A DNA stretch of 63,810 nt, filler included, from Nitrospirae bacterium CG2_30_53_67 (GCA_001873285.1; 5 parts of 5 records of this genome joined end to end with filler, not necessarily neighbours in it); one strand, 5' to 3'; counted from the first letter of the whole stretch, positions 1 through 32,269 are shown. Numbers and translations: made by a program. The notes: generated by a model not told the origin, from the letters alone.

Positions 1-165
1 ACCCGGAAAGAAGAGCTCTTGATCGACAAGGACGACCTGAACCGGATCTGGGTCTTACGGAAACTCCTGCACCCCATGGGGACCGTGGAAAGCATGGAGT
101 TCCTGCTCGACAAACTCAAAGGGACCAAAAGCAACAAGGATTTCCTGGCCTCCATGAACCAGTAA
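1..165 (+). CDS. rho: Transcription termination factor Rho, 3' end (partial)
   Basis: Frame 1 reads TRKEELLIDKDDLNRIWVLRKLLHPMGTVESMEFLLDKLKGTKSNKDFLASMNQ*, the typical Rho C-terminus. Confidence 0.93.
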   Translation, partial: TRKEELLIDKDDLNRIWVLRKLLHPMGTVESMEFLLDKLKGTKSNKDFLASMNQ

Positions 166-186
166 GCCCTGCTACATACCGTCCTG

Positions 187-214
187 CCGGCCCCGCGAAG
201 CCATGCGAGGCCGG
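187..214. terminator. GC-rich hairpin between convergent rho and DUF6398 genes, possible terminator
   Basis: ccggccccgcgaagccatgcgaggccgg is an imperfect inverted repeat; no clear U-tract. Confidence 0.25.
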
Positions 215-290
215 TCGAGTAAATAAACTGAACCAACGAGGACTGATAACCAACCTCAGAGCAGATTCAGATTTTTGTATTTCTGCTATT

Positions 291-818
291 TCACCTCTCC
301 GAAGCATTCCATCGGTCTGCTGGAATGTATGGAATCAATCCTTTTTCAAATGCAATCACTTGTACTTCTCGATGCATGTTGCGGATGTCAACCATCATGT
401 CATTGACTTGCAATATCCAAATCAAAGGGTTGTCGTCTACTCGGCTTTGCAAACACCAGTTTGGATCAAGTTGATACATTTTCAGCAGGTCGCGAATAAA
501 TTTCGCCTTATTTGCTCCGCTACTTTGACTAACGCCAAACGCGGCGCATAACTCATCTGCCCGCATGTGTGGCGTCTGTGATTTATCAAAGAAAAAATTG
601 ACTGTACCGAGAGCGTAGAGAATAGCGCATGCCCAAATTTCTGGTTTCCCCCCTGTGATAGGAGAAGGTCGTTTGCGGGCAAGAGTGGCTGCCAAACGAC
701 GAGCGAGCATTGCATATTCGCTATTCAGGTGTTGATTGCAAACAGCTTCTATCAAATTGATGATCGCCAAATAAACAGGCTCAACGGCCCGCTTGAGGTG
801 CGCACGGTGCGTCAGCAC
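291..818 (-). CDS. DUF6398-like hypothetical protein, probably 5'-truncated (its apparent GTG start lies inside the attC site)
   Basis: HLNSEYAMLARRLAATLARKRPSP...WACAILYALGTVNFFFDKSQTPH...NPLIWILQVNDMMVDIR...AFEKGLIPYIP. Confidence 0.7.
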   Translation of the reverse strand: MLTHRAHLKRAVEPVYLAIINLIEAVCNQHLNSEYAMLARRLAATLARKRPSPITGGKPEIWACAILYALGTVNFFFDKSQTPHMRADELCAAFGVSQSSGANKAKFIRDLLKMYQLDPNWCLQSRVDDNPLIWILQVNDMMVDIRNMHREVQVIAFEKGLIPYIPADRWNASER

Positions 819-848
819 CGCGCGTCGCTCTCGAAGCGGTTGTTATGC
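779..848 (-). mobile_element. Integron attC recombination site (70 bp)
   Basis: Minus strand: R'' GCATAAC, 5-nt spacer, L'' CTTCGAGA (extra base), palindromic centre CGCGGTGC-TGAC-GCACCGTG, L' CCTCAAG, 6-nt spacer, R' GTTGAGC. Starts 1 nt after the stop of the 850-1071 gene. Confidence 0.85.
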
Positions 849-849
849 G

Positions 850-1071
850 TTACCGGGAAACGGCTACCGGCTGGAGAGAAAATACGCGCGCGAGCTTTGC
901 GGCGGCCGCGATATCGCCGCGTCTCAATGCATCGCGCACATCGTCAAGCTTGTATGCGTCCTCTACCGACAAGTACGGAGACCATTCCGTTTCATCTTCG
1001 AGAAGCTCGACATCCACCTCGGCAACGTACTTGCCTTCGTGCACAAATTTGACTCTATGGCGCTTACTCAT
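850..1071 (-). CDS. Small acidic protein, putative antitoxin partner of a DUF4258-type toxin
   Basis: 73 aa, KFVHEGKYVAEVDVELLEDETEWSPYLSVEDAYKLDDVRDALRRGD; its start overlaps the end of the upstream DUF4258 fragment. Confidence 0.7.
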   Translation of the reverse strand: MSKRHRVKFVHEGKYVAEVDVELLEDETEWSPYLSVEDAYKLDDVRDALRRGDIAAAAKLARVFSLQPVAVSR

Positions 1072-1162
1072 CTTTGCCTCTTCGCTTGGTAAAGGTCCCG
1101 TCCCATCGTTCGGGATCGGGGCGATATGCGGTTACAACTACTGCCGGAAAAGTGAACCCCTT
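1064..1162 (-). pseudogene. C-terminal fragment of a DUF4258-family putative toxin
   Basis: KGFTFPAVVVTAYRPDPERWDGTFTKRRGKDE*; in-frame TAG directly upstream and no start codon. Confidence 0.7.
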
Positions 1163-1167
1163 CTAGA

Positions 1168-1255
1168 AAAATAGGGACAGCGACCATTATTTTCCTTCTC
1201 GTGGCCTACCTCTCAGCTTTGCCATAAGGGGACGAAAATAGGTACATCGTCCATT
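1168..1255. repeat. Two copies of an AAAATAGG(G/T)ACA..G.CCATT motif (third copy at 43009-43029)
   Basis: aaaatagggacagcgaccatt (1168-1188), aaaataggtacatcgtccatt (1235-1255). Confidence 0.55.
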
Positions 1256-1385
1256 AAGCAGTCTTCCACTTTTCTTGCTCTTTTGCCACCGTTAAGCGTT
1301 ATTTATCATCCAAATACAAATTCATGTCAAGATGATTTTAAGGTTTGATCCTGATCTTGTAGAGTAAATCCAGTTTGTCTGGCAT

Positions 1386-1413
1386 AGATCCCCCGATCAA
1401 GTCGGGGGATGAC
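1386..1413. repeat. Single REP-like hairpin of the GTCATT...GGATT family
   Basis: agatcccccgatcaagtcgggggatgac, same family as the 45.5-54 kb clusters. Confidence 0.7.
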
Positions 1414-1454
1414 ACCTGGATTGAAGCAATGACGACAGAGCAAATGAGTATGCT

Positions 1455-1748
1455 TTATATAGAAAGCCTGTCCCTGACCTCCCCGGATGTGAGGCCTTGC
1501 ACACGGAGGATTTTTTCTCGGCTTCGCTCTCCGCGTAGGATGGAGATTCTGGACTGAGCAATCCGGAGTTTTTTGGAGAGGAACCGGATACAACGCTTGT
1601 TGGCCGCACCCTCGACGGGCGGGGATGTGAGCCGGATCCGCAGGGCGCCCTCCACCACACCGACGATTTCGTCGCGTGATGCGCCGGGCTGGACCCGGAC
1701 TTTCAAGGTGACTCCCCGCTCATCTTTTTTGGAAATGAATTCGAACAT
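1455..1748 (-). CDS. DUF167/UPF0235 (YggU) family protein
   Basis: LKVRVQPGASRDEIVG...LRIRLTSPPVEGAANK...ILRGERSREK; position after divIVA. Confidence 0.92.
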   Translation of the reverse strand: MFEFISKKDERGVTLKVRVQPGASRDEIVGVVEGALRIRLTSPPVEGAANKRCIRFLSKKLRIAQSRISILRGERSREKILRVQGLTSGEVRDRLSI

Positions 1749-2257
1749 CAGATCATTTGAACATCGCTGTCGATATGCAGTTCGGTATCAAAACTCTGCT
1801 GGTCCTGCTCGATGATCTTCTTGTAGGAGTCGACCAGACTTCCCACCTTGGCCAGAAACTCCCTTCGCATTCTTTTGAGATGCTGGACCTCGTTCTGCAG
1901 GGCGGACTGCTCTTCCCTGGCCTTCGCCAGGATTTCCGAGGCCTTTAACTCCGATTCCCGGATGATCTGCTTTCCCTGCTGCTCGGATCGGGTCCTCTCC
2001 TCGTTCAGGATCTGCTGGAGCCCCTCCAGGGTTTTCCGCATGGAGGATTCCCGGTCCTTGATCTCCCTGATCTCGATCTCTTTCTGATCAACCGTTTCCC
2101 TGAGGGCTTGATTCTTCGCGGTCAGCTGTTCGAGCTCCAGGCTGATCATCTCCAGGAAGGTCTGAACCTCCTTGACGTCGAACCCCCGGAAGGTTGTTGA
2201 GAACTGTTTTTTTCTGACATCAAGCGATGTGATGTTCATATTTTCTTCAGGCATCAT
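1748..2257 (-). CDS. divIVA: DivIVA domain protein
   Basis: ITSLDVRKKQFSTTFRGFDVKEVQTFL followed by coiled coil. Confidence 0.9.
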   Translation of the reverse strand: MMPEENMNITSLDVRKKQFSTTFRGFDVKEVQTFLEMISLELEQLTAKNQALRETVDQKEIEIREIKDRESSMRKTLEGLQQILNEERTRSEQQGKQIIRESELKASEILAKAREEQSALQNEVQHLKRMRREFLAKVGSLVDSYKKIIEQDQQSFDTELHIDSDVQMI

Positions 2258-2277
2258 GATCCTCCTTACAGGGTTCT

Positions 2278-2574
2278 CTAACGCAGCCGATAGGCAAAAT
2301 CACTCAGGGTTTTAACCACAAACATATCCAAAAAGTAAAGGATCAGGATCAAGACAAAGGGTGAAAAATCAATCCCCCCGAAAACGGGGAGAAACCGGCG
2401 GATCCGGTACAGGACCGGGTCCGTAGCCCCTCTTAAAAACCGGACCACGGGATTATAGGGGTCCGGGTTCACCCACGAAAGCAGGGCCGCAATGATCACG
2501 ACCCAGATATAGACGGAGATGATCATGTGCGCAATCTGTGCGGCGGCGCTCAGCAGGTTTCCGAAGATAAACAT
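2278..2574 (-). CDS. yggT: YggT family membrane protein
   Basis: ALLSWVNPDPYNPVVRFL...TDPVL..IRR.LP..GGIDFSP. Confidence 0.95.
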   Translation of the reverse strand: MFIFGNLLSAAAQIAHMIISVYIWVVIIAALLSWVNPDPYNPVVRFLRGATDPVLYRIRRFLPVFGGIDFSPFVLILILYFLDMFVVKTLSDFAYRLR

Positions 2575-3390
2575 CTATTCCCCCTTCCCGAGTTCCTTTG
2601 ATCGTTGTGTGGCCGCCTCCACGGCATTGTACAGGGCGGCCCTGAACTTCCCCTTCTCCAGCGCATGGAGCCCGGCGATGGTAGTCCCTCCCGGGGATGT
2701 CACCATGTCCTTGAGTTCCCCGGTATGGCGCCCGCTTTTCAAAGCCATGCCGGATGCGCCCCGCACGGTCTGCACCGCGAGACGCGTGGCCACATCCCTG
2801 GGGATCCCCTGCCGGACTCCGGCATCGGAGAGGGCCTCGATCAGCACAAAAACGTAGGCCGGACCCGACCCGGAAAGTCCCGTGACCGCATCCATGATCT
2901 TCTCGTCCACCACGACCGTCTCCCCCACGGCATTGAGGAGACGGACCGCGAGCTTCTTGTCCTGAGAGGTCACATGACTGTTGAAACTGAGGGCGGAGAT
3001 CCCTTCCTGGATCAGAGCGGGGGTATTGGGCATGACCCGGGCCGCCCGGACCTTCTTCCCGATCCCCTTTTCGATCCTAAACAATGAGACTCCGGCCGCA
3101 ATCGAGATCAGAAGTGTCCGGGGGGCGATTGTTTCAGCAATCTCCTTCAAAACCTGGTCTATGATCTGGGGCTTGACCGCGAGGAGGATCACATCAGACC
3201 TTGCCGAGAGATCCTGATTATGACGGGCCGCCTTGACCTTGAACCTTCGTACGACGTGACGAGCCTTTTCAACATCGGCATCGCTGACCAGAATGTCCTG
3301 AGGCCGCGCCGTTGAGGATGAGATCCATCCCTGCAGCAGTGCGCCGCCCATGTTCCCTGCTCCGATCAGTCCGATCTTCGGTCGTTTCAT
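2575..3390 (-). CDS. proC: Pyrroline-5-carboxylate reductase
   Basis: IGAGNMG, LAVKPQ, RVMPNTP, GSGPAY, VTSPGGTT; start set at MKRPK. Confidence 0.97.
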   Translation of the reverse strand: MKRPKIGLIGAGNMGGALLQGWISSSTARPQDILVSDADVEKARHVVRRFKVKAARHNQDLSARSDVILLAVKPQIIDQVLKEIAETIAPRTLLISIAAGVSLFRIEKGIGKKVRAARVMPNTPALIQEGISALSFNSHVTSQDKKLAVRLLNAVGETVVVDEKIMDAVTGLSGSGPAYVFVLIEALSDAGVRQGIPRDVATRLAVQTVRGASGMALKSGRHTGELKDMVTSPGGTTIAGLHALEKGKFRAALYNAVEAATQRSKELGKGE

Positions 3391-18746: not shown

Positions 18747-20186
18747 TTAATTTCTCTTGCCCCGCGTCTCTTTTTGAGAGATTGCCCCGGCGTTCTTCAG
18801 TTCCTCGGCAATCCGTTCCAGCCCCATTTTTCTTGAAGCCTTGAGCAGAATGCGGTCGTTCCCTTTTAGGATTTTCCCGAGTTTCAGCGCGGCATCCTCC
18901 CGGCTCGCGCACCTGATGATCCCTTTTGGGTTCATCCCATGGTCTTCCGCCTCCTCTGCAATCCACGCCGAGTGTTCGCCTACGGTGACCAGGATATCCA
19001 GGGAGCTTTCTGCAACCAGACGTCCGATGGACCGGTGCGCCTCCTCACTATATCCCCCAAGCTCCAGCATATCTCCGAGCACGGCGATATTCCTCCTGTG
19101 AGGTCCCAGACCCTTTAGAGTCCGAATCGCCGCCTTCATGGATTCCGGGTTCGCGTTATAGGCGTCATTGATCACCACGGCGCCGTTTAAGAGACGGAAG
19201 GTCTCCCACCTCTGGGCCAGGGGCCGGTAGGAAGAAAGTCCCCGGGCAATGATGGAGAGGGGCCTTCCCAGGACGACGGCGGCCGCGGCCGCGGCCATCG
19301 CGTTTGAGACCTGATGCAGGCCCGGAATATTCAGACGGACCTCGCTCTCCTCCCCGCCGTGTTTCAGTCTGAAGCGGGTCCCATCCTCGCCGGTATGAAT
19401 CTCTTTTGCGGTGACATCCGCGCCTTTTTCCAGACCGAAGGTCATGACTTTGCCTCTGACCCGGCCCCGCATGGCATAGACCCTCGGGTCATCCCGGTTC
19501 AAAACAGCCCACCCATCCTCGGCCATCTCTTCGAGGATCTCCCCCTTGGCCATGGCGACCTCCTCTACGGTCCGGAGGGCCATCAGGTGAGCGGCCGAGA
19601 CATTGGTGATGACCACCACGCCCGGACGGGCGATCTCCCTCAGCCTGCGGATCTCCCCTGTCCCGCTCATGCCGAATTCCAGGACAGCCTCCTCGGTCTC
19701 CCCGCCGATCCCGAAGAGGCTGAGGGGGACTCCGATATGATTGTTCAGGTTTCCCTGTGAACGGAAGACGTGATGCCCGATACTCAGAATGCTGTAGATC
19801 ATCTCCTTGGTGGAGGTCTTCCCATTGGTTCCGGTCACCGCCACAATGGGAATCCTGTACTGCATGCGGTGCGCATGGGCCAGGTCCTGGAGCGCCCTGA
19901 TGGTGTCCGGAACGGAGATCAGATTCTGCTCCGCTCCCGGCTCTTGAAAAAGGCTTTCACGGAAAGGCGCCCATCCTTCCCGGACCATCACGCCCAGCGC
20001 CCCTTTCTTCAGAACCTCTTCGCAGAAATCATGCCCGTCAAAACGGTCGCCGAGGACGGCCACAAAAAGCTCCCCTTTGCGGATGCTTCTTGAATCAATG
20101 GAGATCCCGGAGAAGTGAAGGTCTTCCCTTCCTCTCAGCCGTTTCCCGCCCGTAGCCTTTAAGACGTCCGTTGTCATAAACAGCAT
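18747..20186 (-). CDS. murF: MurF ligase
   Basis: SIDSR, FDGHDF, TGTNGKTSTKE, NNHIGVP, NDAYNANP, LGDMLELG, KASR. Confidence 0.98.
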   Translation of the reverse strand: MLFMTTDVLKATGGKRLRGREDLHFSGISIDSRSIRKGELFVAVLGDRFDGHDFCEEVLKKGALGVMVREGWAPFRESLFQEPGAEQNLISVPDTIRALQDLAHAHRMQYRIPIVAVTGTNGKTSTKEMIYSILSIGHHVFRSQGNLNNHIGVPLSLFGIGGETEEAVLEFGMSGTGEIRRLREIARPGVVVITNVSAAHLMALRTVEEVAMAKGEILEEMAEDGWAVLNRDDPRVYAMRGRVRGKVMTFGLEKGADVTAKEIHTGEDGTRFRLKHGGEESEVRLNIPGLHQVSNAMAAAAAAVVLGRPLSIIARGLSSYRPLAQRWETFRLLNGAVVINDAYNANPESMKAAIRTLKGLGPHRRNIAVLGDMLELGGYSEEAHRSIGRLVAESSLDILVTVGEHSAWIAEEAEDHGMNPKGIIRCASREDAALKLGKILKGNDRILLKASRKMGLERIAEELKNAGAISQKETRGKRN

Positions 20187-20203: not shown

Positions 20204-21673
20204 TTACACCTTCTCTTTTGAAACCCGTTGCCTGATGGCTTTCCTCACCTCTTCACGGTCATCAAAGTGGAACCGATGATCCCCGATGATCTGGTAATCC
20301 TCATGCCCCTTCCCGGCCACCACCACCAGGTCTCCTGTTCCCGCCTCCTCGATCCCTTGCCGGATCGCGAGACCTCGATCCTCGATGACCGAGACGTCCG
20401 AACGCATGATGCCGGCAAGGATATCCCGGATGATCATTGCCGGATCTTCGCCGCGCGGGTTGTCCGAGGTGACGATCACCCTGTCGGAGAGCTCAGCCGC
20501 CGCCCTTCCCATCATGGGCCTTTTGCCACGGTCCCTCTCCCCGCCGCATCCGAAGATGGTGATCAGCCTCCCGTTGCAGAGCGTTCTCGCATTCTCAAGG
20601 AGGCGCTTCAGGGCGTCGTCCGTATGGGCGTAATCAACCACCGCCATGAATCCTGGGCCTTGAATCTTTTCAAACCTCCCCGGAACACCGGAGACCCTTG
20701 CCATCCCTTGAAGGATGACCGGATCCGGAATGCCAAGAGACACCCCCGCAGCCACGGCGCTGAGGATGTTGTAGATGTTATAGGCGCCGATCAGAGGGGA
20801 GTTGACCGCCAGTTCCCCTCGAGGGGTCCGGATACGAAAACAAAGACCATGGATCGTGCATTTCGGATCCATGGCCCGGAAATCCGCATCCTGATGCATC
20901 CCGAAGGACCAGACCGGTCCGGAACACTCCCTGATCAATCGTCTCCCCCACGGGTCGTCCATATTGATCACGGAAGCCCCGCCGGGTTTTGCATACGCTT
21001 CATGGAAGAGTCTTTGCTTGGCCTCATAATACGATTCCATGGTCCCATGAAAATCCAAGTGGTCCCTGGTCAGGTTGGTCAAGACCCTAATATTGTAACG
21101 GCACCCGAGAACCCTCCCGAGCGCCAGGGCATGGGATGAGACCTCCATGACGCAGGCCTCCAGCCCTTTCCCGATCATCCGGCTCAGGAGAGACTGCACG
21201 CGGAGCGCATTGGGTGTGGTGTTCGGCGCGGGCAGGATCTCATCCCCGATCTCATATCGGAGGGTTCCGATCAATCCCGGTTTCATCCCGGCTTCCCTGA
21301 GGATCCCCTGAATCAGCAGGGAGACGGTGGTCTTTCCGTTGGTGCCGGTGATCCCGACCAGGGTCATTTTCTCCGACGGATAACCATAGAAATGCGCGGA
21401 AACCCTGGCCAGCGCATCCATGGAATCGGGGACCGTGATCCCTACGGCCCGCCTGAGATTCAGTTTCTTCTCCGAGATGACTGCCACCGATCCCCTCTCT
21501 TCAGCCTTGGGCACGTGGCGCAGACCGTCCGTGTGCGCCCCTTTGACGGCAATAAACAGGAACCCGGGCTCCGTCTCCCTGGAATCATCCGTGATGCCGT
21601 TCACCTCTATGTTCTCCGTCCCTCCCGTGACTTCGGCGCCGGGAAGGACCTCCAGAAGCTCGTTCAACTGCAT
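20204..21673 (-). CDS. murE: MurE ligase (meso-DAP type)
   Basis: GTNGKTT, MEVSSHAL, DHLDFH, VDYAHT, GCGGERD, DNPR, GKGHE. Confidence 0.98.
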   Translation of the reverse strand: MQLNELLEVLPGAEVTGGTENIEVNGITDDSRETEPGFLFIAVKGAHTDGLRHVPKAEERGSVAVISEKKLNLRRAVGITVPDSMDALARVSAHFYGYPSEKMTLVGITGTNGKTTVSLLIQGILREAGMKPGLIGTLRYEIGDEILPAPNTTPNALRVQSLLSRMIGKGLEACVMEVSSHALALGRVLGCRYNIRVLTNLTRDHLDFHGTMESYYEAKQRLFHEAYAKPGGASVINMDDPWGRRLIRECSGPVWSFGMHQDADFRAMDPKCTIHGLCFRIRTPRGELAVNSPLIGAYNIYNILSAVAAGVSLGIPDPVILQGMARVSGVPGRFEKIQGPGFMAVVDYAHTDDALKRLLENARTLCNGRLITIFGCGGERDRGKRPMMGRAAAELSDRVIVTSDNPRGEDPAMIIRDILAGIMRSDVSVIEDRGLAIRQGIEEAGTGDLVVVAGKGHEDYQIIGDHRFHFDDREEVRKAIRQRVSKEKV

Positions 21674-27987: not shown

Positions 27988-29241
27988 GGGCAGAACGCTT
28001 TAAAGCTGCTCCGGGAACAGTCTTTTGATCTGGTCCTGACCGACTTGAGGATGGAGAAGGTGGACGGCATACAGATCCTGCAGAAATGCCGTGAACTCTG
28101 CCCGGATACCGAGGTCATCATGATCACGGGTTTTGCCACACTGGAATCCGCCGTCGAGACCATGAAACACGGGGCGTTCTACTATATCGCAAAACCGTTT
28201 AAACTGGACGAAGTCCGCAAAGTCGTCAAAGAGGCCCTGGAGAAGGTCAGGCTGAAGAAAGAAAATATCCAGCTCAGGGAACAGATCGAAAAATTTCAGG
28301 GAAAGGTCAGGATCATCACACAGGACCCCGAAATGCAGCGCCTGCTGGACACGGCAAAACAGATCGCCCCGACGGATTGCAACATCCTGATCAGCGGGGA
28401 AAGCGGCACGGGCAAAGAGTTATTCGCCAGATTCGTCCATTTTCACAGCCATCGCTCTCCCGGCCCTTTTTCCGCCATCAACTGCGGCGCATTCACCGAA
28501 GAGCTTCTCGCCAATGAACTTTTCGGCCATGAAAAAGGGGCCTTCACCGGGGCCTCGGCTGCGAAGAAAGGATTGATCGAGACGGCATCGGGGGGAACGC
28601 TCTTCCTGGATGAGATGACCGAGATGCCTCCATCCATGCAGGTGAAGCTCCTGAGGGTGATCCAGGAAAAGGAAGTCCTGAGAGTCGGCAGCACGGAACC
28701 ATCTAAAGTCGATGTGCGCTTCATCGCCGCCACGAACCGTGACACCCAGGAGGCTGTCAAGAGCGGCCATCTCAGGCAGGACCTGTACTTCCGTTTGAAC
28801 GTGGTCTCTTTACATATTCCTCCCCTCTCGGAGAGAAAGGATGACCTCCCCCTTTTAAGCCATTATTTCCTGAAAAAATATGCCGTCCTGATGAAGAAAA
28901 GCGTCACGGAGATCTCAGAGGACGTCATCGCCCTCCTCATGGATTATGGGTTTCCCGGCAACGTGAGGGAACTCGAGAACCTCGTCGAACGGGGGGTCGC
29001 GCTCTGCAACGGGAATACCATAGAGATCGCCCACCTCCCTGAGGACCTCAAGGAGCTGAACATCAAGACCTTCCGCAAGAAGCATGGGAAGATCCCGTCC
29101 CTGGATGAACAGGAGAAGGCGTATATCCAATGGGTCCTGAAAGATGTCAATGGGAATAAAACACTGGCGGCCCAGATCCTCGGCATAGACCGGGTTTCCC
29201 TGTGGAGGAAACTGAAGCGATACGGGATCGAGAACGAGTAG
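27988..29241 (+). CDS. NtrC-family sigma-54-dependent response regulator (5' partial)
   Basis: Receiver (DLVLTDLRM), GESGTGKE, GAFTGA, LFLDE, PGNVREL, Fis-type HTH. Confidence 0.96.
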   Translation, partial: GQNALKLLREQSFDLVLTDLRMEKVDGIQILQKCRELCPDTEVIMITGFATLESAVETMKHGAFYYIAKPFKLDEVRKVVKEALEKVRLKKENIQLREQIEKFQGKVRIITQDPEMQRLLDTAKQIAPTDCNILISGESGTGKELFARFVHFHSHRSPGPFSAINCGAFTEELLANELFGHEKGAFTGASAAKKGLIETASGGTLFLDEMTEMPPSMQVKLLRVIQEKEVLRVGSTEPSKVDVRFIAATNRDTQEAVKSGHLRQDLYFRLNVVSLHIPPLSERKDDLPLLSHYFLKKYAVLMKKSVTEISEDVIALLMDYGFPGNVRELENLVERGVALCNGNTIEIAHLPEDLKELNIKTFRKKHGKIPSLDEQEKAYIQWVLKDVNGNKTLAAQILGIDRVSLWRKLKRYGIENE

Positions 29242-30463: not shown

Positions 30464-32269
30464 ATGCTGACAACCGATATGATGCTTGTGATGGCTGTGA
30501 TCGCAGCCGCTGTATTTCTTTTCGTTGTGGAATGGGTCAGGGTTGACGTGGTTGCGATCATCGTGATGGTCTCCCTCCCCCTCCTGGGCCTGGTGACCGG
30601 GCAGGAGGCCTTCATGGGGTTCAGCAGTAACGCCGTCATCTCCATTATTGCCGTGATCATCATCGGGGCGGGACTGGACGGGACAGGGATCATGAATAAG
30701 GTGGCCAAACCCATCACGCGCCTTGCCGGGAACAGCGAGGCCAGGCTGATTGCCCTGGTGTCCGGCACCGTGGCCCTGATCTCTTCCTGCATGCAGAATA
30801 TCGGCGCCGTGGCCCTCTTCCTTCCCGCAACGCAGCGGGTCTGCAAAAAGCTCGGCATCGCTCCCTCAAGGGTCTTGATCCCCCTCGGGTTTCTCGGCAT
30901 TATCGGCGGGTGCCTGACCCTGGTAGGTTCCAGTCCGCTGATCCTCCTGAACGACCTCATGGCCACAAAAAATCTGAAACCTTTCGGGCTTTTCGATGTG
31001 ACTCCCGTCGGCGCCGCCCTGGTGATCGCCGCCCTCGCCTATTTCGCCTTCTTCGGAAAATTGGTCTTGCCGAGCACGAGCGGTAAAACCGCGCCCTCAC
31101 AGACCATTGATTTCGGCAAGATCTACTCTTCCGCAAATGAGCTGATCGAGCTCAAATTCCCAAAGGAGTGTGACTGCGAAAAAACCCTGGAACAGATGGC
31201 CATCCGTCCCAACTATCTCGTCACCGTGGTTGCGGTTGCCAAACAGGGGGGAAAGAAAAAGATCATGGCCCCCACCTGGGAGACGATCATCAGCCCGAAT
31301 GACGACATCGCTGTGGTCGGGTCCAGAGAAAACGTCATGCGATTTGCCGAGGATTACAGCATGACGATCAAAGACAAACTCGAGATCTTCGAAGATGAGC
31401 TCTCATCGAGCAGTTCGGGGATGGTCGAGACCATTGTCCCCCCGATGTCCAAGCTCGAGGGAAAGTCCATGAAGGAGGTCCATTTCAGAGCGAAATACCA
31501 GGTCAACCCGATCGCCGTCAAAAGGCAGGACAAGGTCTATTACGGAGGCATCTCCAACATCATCCTTCGGCAGGGGGACGTCCTGCTCCTTCAGGGGATC
31601 TTCGAGAAGTTTGCCATTCTCAAGGAAACCAAAGACCTGGCCTTTCTCACACCCATCGAGACTGAAGTGATGAAAACACAAAAGTCCGGAATGGCCCTTT
31701 TATGCTTTGCCGTCGCCCTTCTCCTCGTCTTATCCGGAAAGGTCAAGCTCTCCCTCGCCCTGATGACCGGCGCTCTCGGGATGATCTTAACGGGAGTGAT
31801 CAACATTGATGAGGCCTATCGTGCCGTAGACTGGAGAACGGTTTTCCTGCTGGCAGGACTGATCCCATTGGGTGTGGCCACGGAAAAGAGCGGAACCGCC
31901 GCCTATATCGCAAATCATATCCTAAAAATGATCGGAGACGTCTCTCCGATCGTCCTTCTGACGGTCATCGGACTGCTCACCTCAGCGTTTACCCTTGTCG
32001 TCTCCAACGTGGGCGCTACGGTCCTCCTCGTCCCTCTGGCCATCAACATGGCCTTGGGCGCCGGAGCGGACCCGAGGATGGCGGCCTTGACCGTGGCCGT
32101 GGCCGCATCCAACGCTTTTGTCCTTCCCACGCATCAGGTCAACGCCTATATCATGGGGCCGGGCGGGTACAGGACCATGGATTACATCAAGGCGGGATCA
32201 ATTATGACCTTCTTATATCTTGCAGTGATGATCGGCGCCATCTATATCTTCTACGGCATATCCGCTTAA
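30464..32269 (+). CDS. SLC13/DASS-family permease with TrkA-C domains
   Basis: GFSSNAVI, MQNIGAV, GGCLTLVGSSP, soluble centre, VDWRTVFLLAGLIPLG, VVSNVGA, PTHQVNAYIMGPGGY. Confidence 0.9.
   Translation: MLTTDMMLVMAVIAAAVFLFVVEWVRVDVVAIIVMVSLPLLGLVTGQEAFMGFSSNAVISIIAVIIIGAGLDGTGIMNKVAKPITRLAGNSEARLIALVSGTVALISSCMQNIGAVALFLPATQRVCKKLGIAPSRVLIPLGFLGIIGGCLTLVGSSPLILLNDLMATKNLKPFGLFDVTPVGAALVIAALAYFAFFGKLVLPSTSGKTAPSQTIDFGKIYSSANELIELKFPKECDCEKTLEQMAIRPNYLVTVVAVAKQGGKKKIMAPTWETIISPNDDIAVVGSRENVMRFAEDYSMTIKDKLEIFEDELSSSSSGMVETIVPPMSKLEGKSMKEVHFRAKYQVNPIAVKRQDKVYYGGISNIILRQGDVLLLQGIFEKFAILKETKDLAFLTPIETEVMKTQKSGMALLCFAVALLLVLSGKVKLSLALMTGALGMILTGVINIDEAYRAVDWRTVFLLAGLIPLGVATEKSGTAAYIANHILKMIGDVSPIVLLTVIGLLTSAFTLVVSNVGATVLLVPLAINMALGAGADPRMAALTVAVAASNAFVLPTHQVNAYIMGPGGYRTMDYIKAGSIMTFLYLAVMIGAIYIFYGISA

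Follow-up and report, generated by a model that had tools for sequence, protein, structure and literature searches.

Between a rho-type gene and yggU in the genome of an uncultured groundwater lineage, a single integron attC site runs directly into the coding sequence of another cassette gene. The 70-nt element at positions 848..779 on the minus strand is a genuine integron attC and forms the 3' end of a presumed toxin-antitoxin cassette. Its R' box begins with a GTT that is at the same time codon 12 of a DUF6398 gene whose 5' end is missing. It was probably IntI that joined this attC to a secondary site, a GTT within a DUF6398 cassette, leaving a SALIN. The window (the whole stretch of DNA that was analysed, 63,810 bases) consists of several contigs joined by runs of N. 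Window positions 1-27887 are contig C22 of genome G000 (2.37 Mb in 183 contigs), and all positions given here are those of the window unless another contig is named. The collection searched includes 14 species in the phylum of the host.

The original prediction described a complete attC architecture on the minus strand, and the full anatomy is found there both by sequence and with covariance models. Read along the minus strand, which is the top strand, the site consists of the R'' box GCATAAC (848-842), a 5-nt spacer (841-837), the L'' box CTT[C]GAG with an extra C at 833 (836-830), a GC-rich centre with a 4-nt loop (829-798), the L' box CTCAAG (797-792), a 6-nt spacer (791-786), and the R' box GTTGAGC (785-779). 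The predicted crossover lies between G785 and T784. As was also claimed, the site starts 1 nt past the stop of the small gene: the TAA at 852-850 ends the ORF 1071..850 on the same strand, and the attC runs from 848. R boxes of attC sites have the consensus RYYYAAC / GTTRRRY. R' fits this consensus, R'' has A for Y at position 3, and the two boxes form 5 Watson-Crick pairs and 1 G-T pair out of 7. In the fold of the plus (bottom) strand, the single bulges G833, T829, T825, and C821 are all on the R''/L'' arm, an asymmetry that marks the recombined bottom strand of attC. The unpaired stretch formed by the spacers beside the R boxes is shortened by extra pairing in the fold. The energy of the hairpin does not stand out, with z -1.66 and equally good folds in 10-12 of 200 shuffles. 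The region 760-860 has no other copy in the genome.

A hand-made attC pattern scanner in its strictest form gives 3 matches in the genome vs. 1 in the reversed genome. A looser form gives 19 genome matches vs. 26 in the reversed genome. The scanner is too unspecific, was rejected as evidence, and served for seed picking only. Since the pattern is weak and the hairpin energy unexceptional, covariance models were built from attC sites excluding the window. Model R1 has five seed attC sites, taken from arrays around DUF6398 homologs (L031 and L059) and from contigs C103 and C149 of G000; they were realigned with Infernal, as MAFFT had misaligned the short ones. Model R2, from one further round, has 12 attC sites including one located 2 kb downstream of the integrase gene of G000. 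Both leave-one-out models match exactly 779-848 on the minus strand, end to end, R1 with 23.1 bits (E 0.0061 in 530,663 bases) and R2 with 24.8 bits (E 3.5e-5), the E-values being rough for home-made models with seeds chosen by our own pattern scanner. This is the check by covariance model that had been proposed. The match is the sole one of R2 at E<=1 in the 63,810-base window. Rescaled to the 2.37-Mb genome its E-value is ~1e-3, and 24.8 bits is at the low end among accepted attC matches. A filtered run of R2 on the whole genome did not list 779-848; the first-look filter scored 150 of 652 candidates, and this run therefore lists only three training sites. R2 has an unpaired column where the site has its extra C (833). 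Compensatory changes are found at 10 of the 17 modelled pairs among 30 aligned sites, in an alignment fitted to the model, and covariation is 0.273 vs. 0.115 in shuffles, with none of 500 shuffles reaching 0.273. As noted for IntegronFinder 2.0, single attC sites can be true positives (PMC9024848).

The ORF from GTG 818 to 291 carries a DUF6398 domain. It matches PF19935 with E 3.4e-42 (143.5 bits vs. a cut-off of 27.2); profile positions 1-106 are all matched, and the domain starts at residue 18. The ORF is composite. Its first 11 codons (786..818, minus strand), with GTG at 818..816 as the putative start, are derived from the attC, and the rest (291..785, minus strand) is the DUF6398 gene from codon 12 to the stop. 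The ORF has 1,393 relatives at E<=0.001, and among those listed almost all are 170 aa long and 70-89% identical. In an alignment of 21 rows, the conserved N-terminus of 11-12 residues found in the homologs is absent from the window ORF, whose residues 1-11 have nothing but the initial Met in common with it, and identity is 69-85% from V12 onward. V12-E13-P14 is encoded by GTT GAG CCT, where GTT is the start of R', and protein similarity begins at that point. At the DNA level (blastn against 12 cassette copies), similarity starts at 785 in four loci, at 773 in six, and at 758 in two. It never extends upstream of 785, is lacking throughout 786-848, and has its other end at 311-313. Thus similarity ceases at 785, the homologs have an extra N-terminus, and none aligns through 786-818. 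The homologous part is 785..311, and an extension of six codons stands in place of the stop of the homologs. Native copies have their own RBS and ATG, followed by 11-13 codons before the breakpoint codon. Alignment, domain search, and native copies all agree with the earlier description: the attC leads in frame into DUF6398, and no native leader stands between them. Many intact DUF6398 copies pin the breakpoint to the G|TT of the attC. A blastn-short search of the assembly for the missing 5' segment found no trace of it, the best match having E 0.04 and none being on C22.

GTT is a rare form of the breakpoint codon. It is found in two of 31 in-register genome loci and in none of 12 metagenome loci, most having GTA. 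One native copy, L050, has the same ten bases as the window at the breakpoint codon, and thus the GTT target exists within the DUF6398 family.

The truncated gene belongs to a cassette too. Same-strand R2 attC matches are present in all 12 non-self metagenome DUF6398 loci, close to the gene in ten of them and ~1 kb off in the other two (L120 and L121); the target was therefore a cassette and not a resident core gene. The DUF6398 locus L031 is an array of four attC sites. An upstream attC was called in eight loci, and in all eight 82-87 nt separate the end of its R' from the V codon. This distance is zero in the window, so ~90 nt are missing (leader, RBS, ATG, and 11 codons). DUF6398 is present in only one of 14 genomes of the phylum of the host, and the nearest relatives come from Chloroflexota, Acidobacteriota, and Chlorobiaceae records. 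From this sequence context DUF6398 emerges, as a by-product of the breakpoint analysis, as an integron cassette gene that is widespread and strongly conserved, with copies in records labelled Chloroflexota, Acidobacteria, Chlorobiaceae, and others. The name DUF6398 occurs in no paper of the literature searched. The protein has four conserved Cys and one His, and the loci include L031, L059, and L114-L125. The predicted structure of the window ORF (mean pLDDT 69.2) has no Foldseek match in the PDB at E<=0.001 (best E 1.3), and the weak rows listed are cyclin/TFIIB-like with TM 0.35-0.42.

The cassette that brought the attC is represented by two genes on the minus strand. The gene at 850..1071 encodes a protein of 73 aa without a Pfam or NCBIfam family. 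It is 69% identical to a gene on contig C157 of the sister species G001 that follows and overlaps a DUF4258 gene (PF14076, 4.3e-18, in the intact pair of that contig). Upstream of the 73-aa gene, 1064..1162 is the putative remnant of a DUF4258 toxin gene, consisting of its last 32 codons (1162..1067) plus the stop, overlapping the start of the 73-aa gene. The C-terminus of the DUF4258 protein of G001 agrees with this remnant in 17 of 28 residues (E 4e-11); the remnant gives no Pfam match of its own, and an in-frame TAG is directly upstream. Gene order suggests that DUF4258 is the toxin and the 73-aa protein its partner, the presumed antitoxin. With the toxin cut to 32 codons, the module cannot act as an addiction system. 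Two more toxin-antitoxin pairs adjoin attC-like sites, in G000 and G001. On contig C114 of G000 (29095..28507 and 28512..28456, minus strand), two small overlapping genes read like a toxin-antitoxin pair. After them comes an attC-like site, the R' box of which shares bases with the stop codon of a convergent gene. This site looks like attC by eye and was rejected as such, as R2 gives it only 10.3 bits (E 0.52).

No intI gene is found on C22, and R2 finds no second attC over the whole window, which bears out the claim that the contig has neither. The overlapping contig C145 (10.5 kb) is likewise without attC (best 9.8 bits, E 1). The proposed search for intI elsewhere gave an intact gene on contig C20 of the same genome (G000:C20:2238-3182, minus strand), which matches TIGR02249 over positions 1-315 without stops (485.7 bits vs. 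a cut-off of 265) and also has Pfam integrase domains. On C20 (loci L001 and L030), the intI ORF (3368..2235) is followed on the same minus strand by two genes (2126..1170 and 1195..236) for an EcoRV-like endonuclease (8.8e-118) and a D12 adenine methylase (1.9e-50). This restriction-modification pair is the first unit after intI, and beyond it is an attC at 160..101 (52.7 bits). The integrase gene is thus on the same strand as the cassettes in this small integron. G001 has the same co-oriented layout, with intI at C30:29912-30856 and attC matches at 31730 and 33707, all on the plus strand. The layout resembles the 'inverted integrase' group of integrons. In the phylum of the host, integrase matches above the cut-off are found in four of 14 species.

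The orthologous integrase of G001 shares a contig with rho, ~24.7 kb away. As contigs C20, C145, and C22 of G000 are syntenic with that contig, the lone attC is at least ~13 kb from the integron platform. Sites of the attC type are clustered by a 4-kb rule, and the window has a single attC with no intI or other attC nearby, as defines a SALIN. Contig C103 contains a 26-residue fragment of an integrase C-terminus (20555-20632, minus strand, E 7.9e-6), 0.7 kb from a strong attC (19751-19837, minus strand, 67.6 bits), with REP copies and a toxin-like gene pair nearby. Judged by these parts, it may be a decayed second integron.

The junction is also found outside the assembly of G000. Three metagenome contigs cross it, L111 and L112 (40 and 52 kb) and L113 (1.5 kb), with 99.7-99.9% identity, and Logan contigs of runs X1 and X3 span window positions 1-1800; some of these contigs and runs may derive from the source site or sample. 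X1/X3 also contain a low-depth contig with a related attC, which differs at three positions over 806-849. Immediately past GTT and immediately ahead of R'' this contig ceases to follow the window, a pattern that would be expected of cassette exchange at G|TT. At the rho-yggU locus of the sister species G001, the 13 nt that span the crossover recur unchanged, CC being followed by the R' box and CTGT (790..778 in the window and 1056-1068 in L024, both on the minus strand). They are preceded in G001 by a ParE/RHH pair and an attC-like sequence, with no DUF6398 after them. The 13-nt identity of G000 and G001 may be either a shared ancestral junction or chance. The G001 sequence at the rho locus is attC-like by eye and was rejected as an attC, since it has no R2 score even with filters off.

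The preferred mechanism starts with the attC of the toxin-antitoxin cassette. Its folded bottom strand (the plus strand of the window) would have been recombined by an integron integrase with a double-stranded attG-type GTT site. The target GTT would be codon 12 of a DUF6398 gene that had itself been acquired horizontally as an integron cassette. Exchange at G|TT would set the attC directly against ...TT GAG CCT... and remove from before DUF6398 a leader of ~50 nt, the RBS, the ATG, and the first 11 codons. In later steps, repeat elements would have taken the place of the toxin gene's 5' part and of anything upstream of it, the DUF6398 cassette would have lost its own attC, and the loss of its stop would have made the ORF six codons longer. 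The product would be the SALIN-type remnant now seen between rho and yggU. The original prediction had a cassette inserted at a secondary site inside a DUF6398 gene. The homology break at the GTT of R' supports this, and the proposal is refined here in that the target is itself a cassette, while catalysis by IntI is what the position of the break suggests.

A deletion could give the same product. Starting from an array with the toxin-antitoxin cassette and a complete DUF6398 cassette, slippage or microhomology between GTTG and GTTG would remove ~90 nt and join the R' of the attC to codon 12, with no integrase acting at the junction. Native upstream R' boxes often read GTTGGG... and codons 12-13 of the window begin with GTTG, and thus a 4-nt direct repeat 82-87 nt apart is plausible; the attC hairpin could favour slippage. 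Insertion also predicts an upstream junction, the DUF6398 5' part followed by the cassette start, and this junction is absent from the window. However, the breakpoint coincides to the base with the cutting position of IntI, and 4 nt is a very short microhomology. No array with both cassettes adjacent is seen among 80 + 12 DUF6398 loci, for which attC matches and flanks were viewed and neighbours not systematically. The related attC on the low-depth contig likewise parts from the window at GTT, in line with exchange by IntI. Since a GTTG-GTTG deletion would yield the same product, we keep it as a serious alternative that is considerably less probable than recombination by IntI.

Two further explanations would remove the attC or the junction altogether. 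The element could be nothing more than a GC-rich hairpin or a terminator that follows the 73-aa gene, with DUF6398 simply divergent at its N-terminus. The fold has a z-score of only -1.66, the pattern scanner alone gives about one false match per genome, and the filtered whole-genome run of the model misses the site. The leave-one-out match has exact ends, however, there is no T-run, and the terminator scan is empty on the minus strand. The homology break falls exactly at the GTT of R', native homologs retain the conserved N-terminus and leader, and intI and other attC sites exist in the genome, so that a simple hairpin is very improbable. A chimeric assembly is more improbable still, to the point of being hardly worth considering. 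The window is made of N-joined contigs of a metagenome-assembled genome, C22 overlaps C145 by 310 bases, and minor variant contigs exist, but the junction is crossed by three separately deposited contigs and by the X1/X3 contigs at 99.7-99.9% identity, even if some come from the same site or sample.

Recombination by IntI at a non-att site has known counterparts. IntI1 reportedly recombines at secondary sites with the consensus GWTMW / GNT (findings ascribed to Francia in 1993 and to Recchia and Hall in 1995). The window resembles these cases in joining an attC to a short non-att site that contains GTT. The IntI1 cases concern plasmid-borne resistance cassettes, whereas the present one is chromosomal, environmental, and inside another cassette. 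For genomic sites, insertion of cassettes by IntI at GWT has been shown experimentally (bioRxiv 10.1101/2022.09.11.507474). The same work describes SALINs as common and proposes an attC x attG route as the origin of lone attC sites. As in the attC x attG SALINs described there, the window has one attC with its cassette gene, at a distance from intI and from any further attC, its junction is at a GWT triplet (here GTT, cut after G), and the insert is co-oriented with the resident operon, which that work shows can drive expression. Unlike the cases it describes, the target lies within the reading frame of a second cassette gene and not at a site of the resident genome, only the right-hand junction is present and the toxin gene is truncated, and the host is an uncultured groundwater lineage. 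Fused cassettes of class 1 integrons (PMC4670013) are similar in that two cassette ORFs lack a normal boundary and the translation start of the second is in question. In the fused cassettes described, the first attC is partly or wholly lost, whereas here the attC is complete and the second cassette has lost its 5' end. Toxin-antitoxin cassettes of sedentary chromosomal integrons (PMC11023631) are also type II pairs with their own attC; unlike those described, the toxin here has 32 codons and the cassette is outside any array.

The junction is best seen as a clean natural example of stray cassette recombination outside an integron, which is already described, and the current picture of integrons is unchanged by it. 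Prior support for such events comes from experiments and from inference from thousands of lone attC sites, and natural breakpoints known to the base are direct evidence of cassette recombination at non-att sites in the wild. The case is notable mainly for its base-exact breakpoint and for the strike on the coding sequence of another cassette. The event damaged another cassette gene and delivered no working gene.

The DUF6398 copy has probably become a poorly translated or decaying gene, judging from its reading frame. The ORF is preceded by an in-frame TAA inside R'', and GTG 818..816 is the first canonical start past it, and the only one for the truncated ORF. This GTG belongs to the 5' side of the stem at the centre of the attC, and nine bases before it stands a weak GAGAG. 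The copy deviates at six of the 80 columns that are at least 95% conserved, four of them in the body of the protein, while 114 homologs, which define their own consensus, deviate at 1.22 on average (sd 1.25, maximum 6). This is only suggestive of relaxed selection on the sequence. Four deviating conserved positions, the lost stop, and the GTG in the attC stem together make us think that the copy is decaying. A promoter scan finds one promoter-like site, no more than in shuffles. A terminator scan finds none on the minus strand, and the attC element has no T-run. As the remnant has the same orientation as the upstream operon, and the scan places no terminator between the two, read-through transcription may occur.

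A quite different history can be imagined, in which the junction is old and in use. The grounds for it are the 13 nt that G001 shares across the crossover, behind another toxin-antitoxin pair, and a third filling in the community that begins at the same 224|225 boundary. The spot between rho and yggU would then be a recurrent natural attG-type cassette hot spot ~25 kb from the platform, and the attC would have been co-opted as coding and initiation sequence, its hairpin gating the GTG of an N-terminally recoded DUF6398 whose ORF has stayed open since before the species split. We regard this as distinctly unlikely.

The genes on both sides of the remnant belong to the backbone. At 1..165 on the plus strand is the 3' end of a rho-type gene, seen as an open-ended ORF, with 79-96% DNA identity to seven relatives. 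The name rho is that of the original prediction, and the test was for the ATPase domain only, which is found in the ortholog fragment of G001 (PF00006, 9.2e-29). The backbone continues downstream of rho over 166..224, conserved and with a GC hairpin; G001 is 95.5% identical up to 224 and unrelated beyond. The 66 nt after the DUF6398 stop (225..290, minus strand) contain no recognisable attC, R2 giving no match there with filters off. On the other side, yggU (DUF167) at 1455..1748 on the minus strand (PF02594, 3.6e-26) is the last gene of the row proC-yggT-divIVA-yggU, for which the upstream DivIVA, YGGT, and P5CR domains are confirmed and with which the cassette remnant is co-oriented. The gap between the rho and yggU matches is 74-229 bp in six relatives of other genera vs. 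more than 1.3 kb in the window. An Rfam search of window positions 1-1800 gave one chance-level match (E 0.74).

The boundary at 224|225 is variable. Three differing sequences follow one and the same backbone base downstream of rho: the DUF6398 flank of G000, 87 nt in G001, and a lower-depth third variant, which is seen as a minor contig in runs X4 and X21 and departs from the window at 224. In G001 (boundary L024 975|976) the 87 nt lead to the ParE/RHH pair and a gene that reads as Fic-like from its sequence. The spot looks, by comparison of these sequences, like a hot spot of variation. As an IntI junction it was rejected, since the three variants share no G before the backbone and no G|TT signature. 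The flank 225-312 has no similar locus besides same-species contigs, and the 87 nt of G001 after the rho-side boundary have no relatives. Window positions 1-310 are identical to G000:C145:1-310 (minus strand), 310 bases by which the two assembly contigs could be joined. Between the stretches that are contiguous on C145, G001 has ~11 kb matching contigs C147 and C102 of G000.

Repeats fill much of the region upstream of the cassette remnant. The stretch 1152..1341 (plus strand), which occupies the place of the toxin gene's 5' part, contains the repeat core at 1171-1182 and 1238-1249; it matches G005, G007, G001, and G000. The repeat, with the core ATAGGGACAGCG, is an imperfect palindrome of ~20 nt with ~30 copies of the core in G000, often in tandem and many at contig ends, and such repeats are also located beside the attC loci on C20, C103, and C149. 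Copies are found directly upstream of IS200-like Y1 transposase genes (PF01797, 3.2e-7). From this arrangement the repeats look like REP elements with their transposase, i.e., a REP/RAYT system shared with G001, G005, and G007. A second palindromic repeat at 1387..1421 has many genomic copies; contigs are ~4-6 times deeper there than in the flanks, and many of them terminate inside it.
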